The translations under genes and the position numbers were made by a program. Below the pieces are notes generated by a model, which did not search any database, was not told the DNA's origin, and was given only the letters and a program-made list of their open reading frames with translations. Shown here in pieces: positions 45,129 to 46,295 of a stretch of DNA of 64,000 bases. Numbering within the stretch: position 1 is the stretch's first letter; each line of letters starts with the position of its first letter. This stretch comes from Nitrosopumilus sp. (GTDB taxonomy: Archaea; Thermoproteota; Nitrososphaeria; Nitrososphaerales; Nitrosopumilaceae), in contig CBDBGZ010000009.1 in assembly GCA_965205425.1 (NCBI GenBank), positions 64,001-128,000 of the forward strand, read 5' to 3'.

Positions 45129-45205
45129 CGAGAAATCGGCAAAAGATAAAAAAATTACTAATTTAGGTACGAAATCACTGTTGTATCTCAAAATCAGTTC
45201 GTCCC

Positions 45206-46193
45206 TTATTTGACATCGTATTCTTCTCCTGTCTGCTCATCAATAACTCTTGTTCCCTTCTCTGGCATCTTTCTTGCATATGCCTTTGCAGGGGTCTCAA
45301 GATTATCCCAGTCAAGTGACATGTGTGGCTTTATGTGATTGTACCAGTGGACCAGCTCATCAATGGTACCAAACCATTTCTGCTTTCTCTGAATCTCGCC
45401 GTGAAATCTTTCGAGCTAGCCATTGGTTTGAGGATGGTTCACTCTTGCCATGATATGCTTTATCTCTAATTTTACCAGTTCCTGCTCAAACTGGGATGCT
45501 CCTTTTCTCTTGTATTCTGATTGGTTTGCATAAAACTGGGAGCCATGATCAGTTAGAATTGATGCAGGCCTACCGTGCTTTGCAATTGCCTCATGTAATA
45601 CCACAAGTGCGTTATCTGTTGTTGCCTCTGCAAACACTCCATGAGAAACGATAAACCTTGATGCGTCATCCTGGTAGCATAAGAACCATCTGCCATCATC
45701 TAGCTTCTTCCAGTCAGTATGCCACATGGAGTTTGAATATGTCCTTTCATATCGAACCCACTTTCGTCTTCTCCTCTTCTTTGGCTGAGCTTCTGCCAAC
45801 CCTTCATCTCTCATAATTTTGTGTATGGTATTGTGAGGTATGTGTGTTCCAGTAGTATCAATTATTTTCTCCAAGAATACTGCAGAACACCTGAACTTTT
45901 CAAATGCTGACTGGACAGTCTGTACCATCTGCTCTGTGATTATTCAAGGCCCGACCAAAATCACTGGAGTGGGGGGGAGACTGGACAGTCTGTACCATCT
46001 GCTCTGTGATTATTCCCTTTGGCCTTCCAGGCTTGCCTAGGATTGGAACTGCACCAGTACGGCGATACCGTGAGTAGAGTTTCTGCACCCACCCAACAGA
46101 TATCTTCATGGATGAGGCTACGTCTGCGTTCTTGGCACCATCCTCTTTTGACTTGATTATCTAGGATATCTGGATTGGATCTAATTTTTGCAT
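45206..46193 (-). pseudogene. IS481-family transposase with two in-frame TAG stops and a 70-bp insertion
   Basis: WHTDW, DDASR, TDHGSQF and PQTNG*LERF; stops at 46161 and 45416; insertion within 45909-46015. Confidence 0.9.
45909..46015. repeat. 37-bp perfect direct repeat around a 33-bp GC-rich insert
   Basis: GACTGGACAGTCTGTACCATCTGCTCTGTGATTATTC at 45909-45945 and 45979-46015. Confidence 0.95.
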
Positions 46194-46295
46194 AATCTTG
46201 TGATTCTTTCCTCTTTTCCAAACGTATCTTGACTTTAGTCTGGAAATAATGGGGTGAACTAATTTGAGGATAATAGAGATAGGTACGAAATCACA

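Follow-up and report, generated by a model that had tools for sequence, protein, structure and literature searches.

How did 33 nucleotides (nt) of unrelated DNA come to lie inside a transposase gene of a wild archaeon, bracketed by two perfect copies of 37 nt of that same gene, in a genome whose assembly carries no recognizable CRISPR-Cas system (CRISPR, short palindromic repeats that are clustered and regularly interspaced)? The locus, here termed S1, lies in a stretch of 64,000 nt from Nitrosopumilus sp. (the window; G000:C9:64001-128000, that is, contig CBDBGZ010000009.1 of assembly GCA_965205425.1), and the genome to which it belongs, designated G000, comprises 2.196 Mb at 33.2% G+C in 9 contigs with a completeness of 99.55%. 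The named relatives of the cofD-like gene that neighbors the scar are Nitrosopumilus. An earlier note, made from the sequence of the window alone, took the scar for the product of natural off-target spacer integration by Cas1-Cas2. We give roughly three chances in four to this reading, with the integrase belonging to a system that has since been lost or that lies outside the assembly. It is supported by the occurrence of Cas1 in the lineage, by fitting repeat and spacer sizes, by unscarred copies of the target, and by four further scars in the same genome; the link to Cas1-Cas2 is circumstantial because the enzyme itself is absent from the G000 assembly.

The sequence of events would be as follows. 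An integrase of CRISPR adaptation (Cas1-Cas2, with Cas4 as a probable partner) would have made one full-site integration at a non-CRISPR site, where the two 3'-OH ends of a prespacer of about 33 bp would attack opposite strands of an insertion sequence (IS) 37 bp apart, this spacing being the usual measure of the integrase across a CRISPR repeat of 36-37 bp. Gap filling would then copy the 37 bp onto both sides of the insert. At least four more such events may have occurred in G000, one with a fragment of the host chromosome and the others with DNA of probably foreign origin. We infer Cas1-Cas2 to be the maker, most likely from a type I-B-like system of the kind present in congeners (repeats of 36-37 nt ending in GATTGAAAC, period 70-72), and that this system has since disappeared from the lineage or resides on DNA outside the 9-contig assembly.

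Anatomy of the scar

The scar consists of three adjoining segments, each given without strand:

45909-45945 (no strand): first copy of the duplicated 37-nt target, GACTGGACAGTCTGTACCATCTGCTCTGTGATTATTC, 100% identical to 45979-46015
45946-45978 (no strand): spacer-like insert of 33 nt, 61% G+C (20/33)
45979-46015 (no strand): second copy of the duplicated 37-nt target, GACTGGACAGTCTGTACCATCTGCTCTGTGATTATTC

S1 thus presents an insert of spacer length between perfect direct copies of a target of repeat length (37+33 nt), as the earlier note had described it, including the G+C content of the insert. The bases that flank the two copies are unlike on both sides (left, t vs a; right, a vs c), which fixes the length of the duplication at exactly 37 nt and that of the insert at exactly 33 nt, barring chance terminal matches, and the partitions of 36+34 or 35+35 that had been entertained are unneeded. 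By our own arithmetic, a sequence of 2.2 Mb with the composition of G000 would be expected to hold about 2e-12 exact direct repeats of 36 nt by chance across 81 spacings. There is no third copy of the 37-mer at the same period; S1 has two copies only, and its "repeat" is transposase coding sequence. The locus is accordingly not a canonical CRISPR array, which has at least three dedicated repeats, a leader and cas genes, and the description of S1 as a nascent array was overstated, given that cas genes, a leader and any sign of use are all missing.

The unoccupied form of the site is preserved in sister copies of the host IS. Elsewhere in the genome the 37-mer has 16 matches with at most one mismatch, and each of them is single, in the context ...caaatg(ct/ta)-37mer-cctttggcc. 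The insert itself has no source nearby or elsewhere in G000, where no second occurrence was found at up to 4 substitutions, and it was likewise not found in the other 150 genomes sampled from the genus when up to 3 mismatches were allowed. Exact matching to viral, metagenome and genome contigs also gave nothing; because exact matching is a blunt instrument, this failure does not imply that the sources of the inserts are absent from such material.

The junctions are carried by contigs assembled from two sequencing studies. A contig of public run X15 (depth 1117) and one of public run X1 (depth 5.6, from another study) each cover 45916-46007/8 with both junctions and zero differences; one of the two runs may be the source sample. 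The earlier note had asked for verification by reads, and these contigs supply support of that kind. The contig of run X16 is an unscarred sister copy of the IS. In run X17, a contig of 1295 nt (depth 22) covers 45944-46007, taking in the insert together with 29 nt from the right repeat, and continues leftward into unlike sequence instead of the left repeat; it could be a rearranged variant or an artefact of the contig graph.

Recurrence and geometry in the genus

S1 is one of five units of the same form in G000. Direct repeats with periods between 40 and 120 were sought across the whole genome. A scan for exact repeats returned 29 non-tandem pairs of at least 18 nt and a mismatch-tolerant scan 56 rows, 12 of which had no tandem flag. 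Both scans led to the identical class of five units, and seven other unflagged rows were set aside (geometries such as 39+16 and 33+23, and coding repeats). The five units, with the sizes of duplication and insert in nt, are:

S1, C9:109909: 37+33, in the host IS family
S2, C7:83610: 37+34, in the same IS family as S1, at another position
S3, C8:25035: 36+34, in the same IS family as S1, at another position
S4, C4:117180: 37+32, at the edge of a multi-copy element (73% identical)
S5, C8:42829: 38 (1 mismatch)+34, in another repeated element

Duplications therefore span 36-38 nt, inserts 32-34 nt and periods 69-72, and every unit lies in or at a repeated element. The duplications are perfect in four of the five units, the inserts are mutually unrelated, and the target segment is single in paralogs of S2, S3 and S5. 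The inserts are not themselves an IS or a transposon, being unrelated to one another in a setting where the host IS duplicates 15 bp. The S3 insert matches C9:1141146-1141179 at 34/34 positions, a site within an ordinary open reading frame (ORF) of 520 amino acids (aa) conserved in congeners; for the inserts of S2, S4 and S5, exact matching to viral contigs gave nothing. At G000:C4:98189-98282, directly abutting an IS end fragment, 16 nt also lie between perfect 39-nt direct repeats, a geometry unlike that of the five scars.

Cas1 is encoded by 42 of 100 Nitrosopumilus congeners, and the arrays in 15 Cas1 neighborhoods fall into three types:

Type A: repeat 30 nt, spacers 35-38 nt, period about 66-67; cas genes not classified
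Type B: repeat 36 nt, spacers 36-38 nt, period 72-74; Cas4-Cas1 fusion, Cas3 and GSU0053/0054
Type C: repeat 36-37 nt ending in GATTGAAAC, spacers mostly 34-36 nt, period 70-73, mostly 70-72 in 3 of 4 loci

Type B is taken to be I-G/I-U-like on the basis of its Cas4-Cas1 fusion, Cas3 and GSU0053/0054, and type C to be I-B-like on the basis of its operon, cas7-cas5-cas3-cas6b-cas1-cas2-cas4. The scar periods of 69-72 are best fitted by type C, which supplies the period of about 70 that the earlier note had proposed to look for, and G000 itself offers no array for comparison. One of the nearest sampled congeners (89% DNA identity beside the scar), G099, encodes a Cas1 of the type C group. Native type C spacers begin mostly with T or A and end most often with A; the ends of the S1-S5 inserts are A/T in 10 of 10 cases (P=0.018). 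A type B spacer of congener G014 (array at about G014:C1:93162) matches G000:C9:1057100-1057135, 36 of its 40 nt being perfect, and the native arrays of the genus therefore also hold spacers from Nitrosopumilus chromosomes. No protospacer-adjacent motif (PAM) emerged from 1691 native spacers, whose 88 matches were nearly all to the same arrays in overlapping loci and included one real match, listed twice, namely that of the type B spacer of G014.

Two congeners with resident CRISPR systems served as controls. The main contig of G014 (1.86 Mb) encodes Cas1 of types A, B and C, and its scan gave 34 rows outside arrays; after removal of 11 of 12 tandem-flagged rows, of two coding repeats resembling collagen and of a 30+32 pair that had 2 mismatches, 20 units were left, four of which (T3, T12, T16 and T20) had their borders placed by eye. 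Sixteen of these 20 isolated units combine a duplication of 36-39 nt with an insert of 34-37 nt, and their period of 72-74 resembles that of the type B/C arrays of the same genome. Four inserts reproduce other chromosomal sites perfectly over their full length, unscarred paralogs are present for 11 of the 20 targets, and sites were hit twice with different inserts at T3/T11 and T7/T20. Two of the units (L142-L143; C1:1737748-1737858 and 1747638-1747749) lie near the type C cas operon, one with a tRNA-like target (GGGAGTCGAACCCCC) and the other between a cas8-like gene and cas1.

For G077, 600 kb of the 2.01-Mb chromosome (30%) was scanned, and the Cas1 search saw only a system with 30-nt repeats. 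Fourteen rows, less eight flagged and two short-period tandems, yielded four units of 30+37, 30+35, about 34+30 and 37+35, and unit sizes are 65-67 compared with 72-74 in G014 and 69-72 in G000. The 30-nt targets look like the type A repeat native to G077, agreeing with it at 19/30 positions (p=0.001), 18/30 positions (p=0.002) and 15/30 positions (the first 7 bases being identical); targets of 36-38 nt in general have no convincing likeness to type B or C repeats. Since the units of both controls match the arrays of their own genomes, the geometry of the units goes with the resident integrase, the 37+35 unit of G077 being the one exception. The target of that unit (L176; C1:541166-541277) holds GTTTCAAT, which in reverse complement is the ATTGAAAC of the type C repeat and so the start of that repeat read backwards.

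The bases at the borders of the duplications bear on the maker as well. They are G/C at 9 of 10 positions in S1-S5 (P=3.4e-4 in a genome of 33% G+C) and at 23 of 40 in G014 (P=0.0066). Five of the six known protospacers (S3 together with those of G014) can be oriented so as to have a 5' TTR flank, a post hoc observation that 7 of 2000 random sets match with any pattern of this kind.

Maker of the scars

The observations that weigh against integration by Cas1-Cas2 begin with the enzyme. Pfam searches of G000 for Cas1 (PF01867) and Cas2 (PF09827) gave 0 matches, so that the question of cas1 and cas2 raised by the earlier note has a divided answer, none in this assembly and Cas1 in many congeners. 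A tblastn search of G000 with 16 Cas proteins at E<=1 returned weak helicase matches only, compared with 13 of 16 recovered in the G014 control. No remnant of a CRISPR repeat was found in G000, where five congener consensus repeats gave chance matches of 11-19 nt. At a completeness of 99.55%, the maker is therefore not where it would be expected. The fit of sizes is also imperfect, in that the inserts are 1-2 nt shorter than the commonest congener spacer (35) and the duplications up to 1-2 nt longer than the commonest repeat (36). The targets of S1-S5 show no significant likeness to the type B/C repeats compared (best p 0.07-0.66, uncorrected for the 6 repeats tried), no source for the S1 insert was found in the contigs and genomes searched and hence no PAM, and the preference for G/C at the borders is absent in G077 (3/8). 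G077 moreover carries its 37+35 unit despite only a 30-nt-repeat system being seen there, and the controls amount to two genomes, one of them sampled at 30%.

Further searches addressed where a lost system might have stood. The ORFs of six congener cas loci matched only flanking housekeeping genes in G000, and none of its contig ends lies within an array or bears a partial one. The flanks of the type A locus of G036 are syntenic with G000:C7:54707-61233, a block that stops exactly at an IS copy (C7:61235), and those of the type C locus of G065 are syntenic with G000:C9:533281-535384; with one side of the flanks compared, these blocks on C7 and C9 hint, from gene order, at a place where a cas locus may have been lost. 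At its 5' end C4 is the reverse complement of C9 at its 3' end, and other contig ends also lie in repeated elements. The assembly breaks at copies of mobile elements, which are unusually plentiful in G000.

The absence of cas genes invites explanations that dispense with Cas1-Cas2. An integrase or repair process other than Cas1-Cas2, making staggered cuts of about 37 bp and capturing about 33 bp of DNA across the genus regardless of CRISPR-Cas, would account for five scars in a genome without any cas gene, for the 37+35 unit of G077, to which the Cas1 search offers no matching system, and for 36-38-nt targets unlike known repeats. We nevertheless regard it as unlikely, since its ruler would have to shift with the arrays of each genome (69-72 in G000, 72-74 in G014, 65-67 in G077), the G077 targets resemble the native repeat, and the G/C preference at the borders suits Cas1-Cas2; nor do we know of any enzyme that combines a 37-bp stagger with capture of about 33 bp. 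More broadly, it would be something of a long shot for the scars to have been written in cells devoid of chromosomal CRISPR-Cas, whether by a mobile module acting in trans or by a non-Cas1 enzyme sharing the 36-37-bp ruler. The version in which the integrase was never chromosomal, being supplied by an adaptation module (cas1-cas2 with or without cas4) of a plasmid or virus, or in which the cas locus was simply not binned, draws on the 9 contigs, whose ends, where read, lie in repeated elements (e.g., C4 5' and C9 3'), and on the named relatives being metagenome-assembled genomes, in which a cas island could be missed. The perfect duplications in four of five units speak for it too, as they imply that the events are recent. 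It is quite improbable all the same in a genome of such completeness, because cas genes are unique sequence that normally assembles and a partial array was not found at the contig ends; it is in any case a variant of the preferred reading as to the location of the enzyme, with the mechanism unchanged.

Explanations without an integrase fare worse still. Microhomology-mediated template switching during replication or repair, in which about 33 nt would be copied from elsewhere before re-annealing 37 nt behind, had been named as an alternative in the earlier note, and the S3 insert, a copy of a distant chromosomal site, is what it would produce. Microhomology between insert and target seemed apparent by eye in S1, S3 and S4, but the local similarity of each insert to its target does not exceed what random genome segments show (p 0.07-0.94, 10 tests), and neither the recurrence, five times, of fixed sizes of 36-38 nt and 32-34 nt nor the differences in size between genomes is predicted by such a process, which we hold to be very improbable. 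An error of assembly or sequencing would be conceivable for a scar within a multi-copy element, which is error-prone for assemblers, had independent contigs from two runs and two studies not carried both junctions unchanged and had the same anatomy not recurred in five G000 units and 24 in two other genomes. A by-product of the IS transposase would be expected to follow the 15-bp duplication of that IS rather than one of 37 bp, and either of these two origins is scarcely credible.

Host element, precedents and significance

The element that received the S1 insert, and the reading frames that it now contains, are arranged as follows:

45179-46279 (minus strand): IS copy hosting the scar, rve-family transposase; ends TGTTG...ATAATAGA; 94-99% identical to more than 20 genomic copies or fragments
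45164-45178 (no strand): left 15-bp target-site duplication of the host IS, TAGGTACGAAATCAC
46280-46294 (no strand): right 15-bp target-site duplication of the host IS, the same 15 bp
45416-45928 (minus strand): C-terminal transposase fragment of 170 aa with the rve catalytic core (PF00665), ending early relative to the 305-aa sister protein
45961-46221 (minus strand): N-terminal transposase fragment, severed from the remainder by the 70-nt insertion
45900-46109 (minus strand): second overlapping reading of 69 aa, the N-terminal part of the transposase

The family is typified by a sister copy at G000:C9:995423-996451, an IS of about 1030 bp encoding an rve transposase of 305 aa. This ORF is intact in seven of ten full-length sisters, and the longest ORF of the window copy is 170 aa, in keeping with the earlier claim that the gain of 70 bp shifts the frame of the gene. 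Deletion of the 70 nt in silico gives an ORF of only 207 aa, so the window copy must bear a second lesion as well; near 45416, the C-terminal fragment stops after ...HPQTNG where the sisters read on. The bases GA at 46278-46279, before the right duplication, are two extra relative to the sister copies. Target duplications of 15 bp, long for this transposase class, flank the window copy and, by reading, five of the ten full-length sisters listed. The palindrome GACTG-GA-CAGTC, to which attention had been drawn at the duplicated site, is indeed there; its presence in every sister copy makes it part of the IS, and no evidence points to a role for it. Among the IS copies listed in G077, G009, G015 and G036 (the best 4 candidates scored per genome), none carries the S1 insertion.

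With off-target integration by Cas1-Cas2 as the preferred origin, close counterparts of the scar include the type I-B-like arrays of congeners (L020-L023), which share a repeat of 36-37 nt, spacers mostly of 34-36 nt and a period of 70-73, and whose spacers, A/T-biased at their ends and of 38-44% G+C, resemble the scar inserts. Unlike these arrays, S1 has as its "repeat" a piece of a transposase gene that does not resemble a CRISPR repeat, and it has a single spacer without leader or cas genes, the inserts being 1-2 nt shorter. Like an ordinary IS insertion, it shows direct repeats of the target on either side of inserted DNA, but the DNA between the 37-bp copies is 33 nt of unrelated sequence without terminal repeats, and the five inserts are all different. 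Casposons span several kilobases and duplicate about 14-15 bp of their target, and they differ further from the present case in that G000 has no Cas1-family gene. The casposase is a Cas1 homologue in Nitrosopumilus that integrates casposons, and thus resembles the proposed maker as a Cas1-family integrase of the same genus that duplicates its target (PMC8464041).

Precedents for the event itself come from the laboratory. Nivala, Shipman and Church (2018; Nat Microbiol 3:310) are reported to have found "neo-CRISPR" loci formed by off-target integration in Escherichia coli over-producing type I-E Cas1-Cas2, and, according to a preprint that cites the study, the authors also saw circumstantial evidence in two further species. 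As described, these loci share with S1 a spacer-sized insert at a non-CRISPR site and one repeat length of duplicated target; they differ in arising from an over-produced integrase with a 28-bp repeat, whereas in G000 the host is a wild archaeon, the stagger is 37 bp, several events have become fixed and the assembly is cas-less. Pyrococcus furiosus Cas1-Cas2 carries out full-site off-target integration in vitro, preferring G and then C one repeat length apart at sites with repeat-like features (PMC6698737). The G/C borders in G000 (9/10) and the repeat-like targets of G077 are in line with that account, which concerns plasmids in vitro and a 30-bp ruler, unlike the 37-nt units, for which no likeness to a repeat was shown. 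In the literature searched, available in part, no report of natural off-target integration in this lineage was found in print.

S1 is best explained as a new natural case of a known kind of event, the cas-less host being its sole unusual feature. As far as the literature consulted goes, off-target spacer integration is documented mainly from over-expression and in vitro work; the events in G000 are natural, cleanly resolved and accompanied by empty-site controls. If Cas1-Cas2 is indeed their maker, the CRISPR integrase of wild Nitrosopumilus would make errors at a rate sufficient for 5 to 20 fixed scars in a genome, and, as such errors break genes, adaptation would carry a cost in insertional mutagenesis. 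The surviving scars are mostly in copies of mobile elements, which fits purifying selection elsewhere, and a target preference is also possible. Standard CRISPR finders require at least three repeats and would for that reason miss two-copy units of this kind. Because the scars preserve the ruler of the integrase, they may outlast the cas genes and stand as fossils of a system that has been lost, and their geometry could reveal, after cas loss, what CRISPR types a lineage had formerly encountered or possessed. If the scars were instead made in cells without chromosomal CRISPR-Cas, they would be a durable trace, in the genome, of the mobile adaptation modules that had been encountered.

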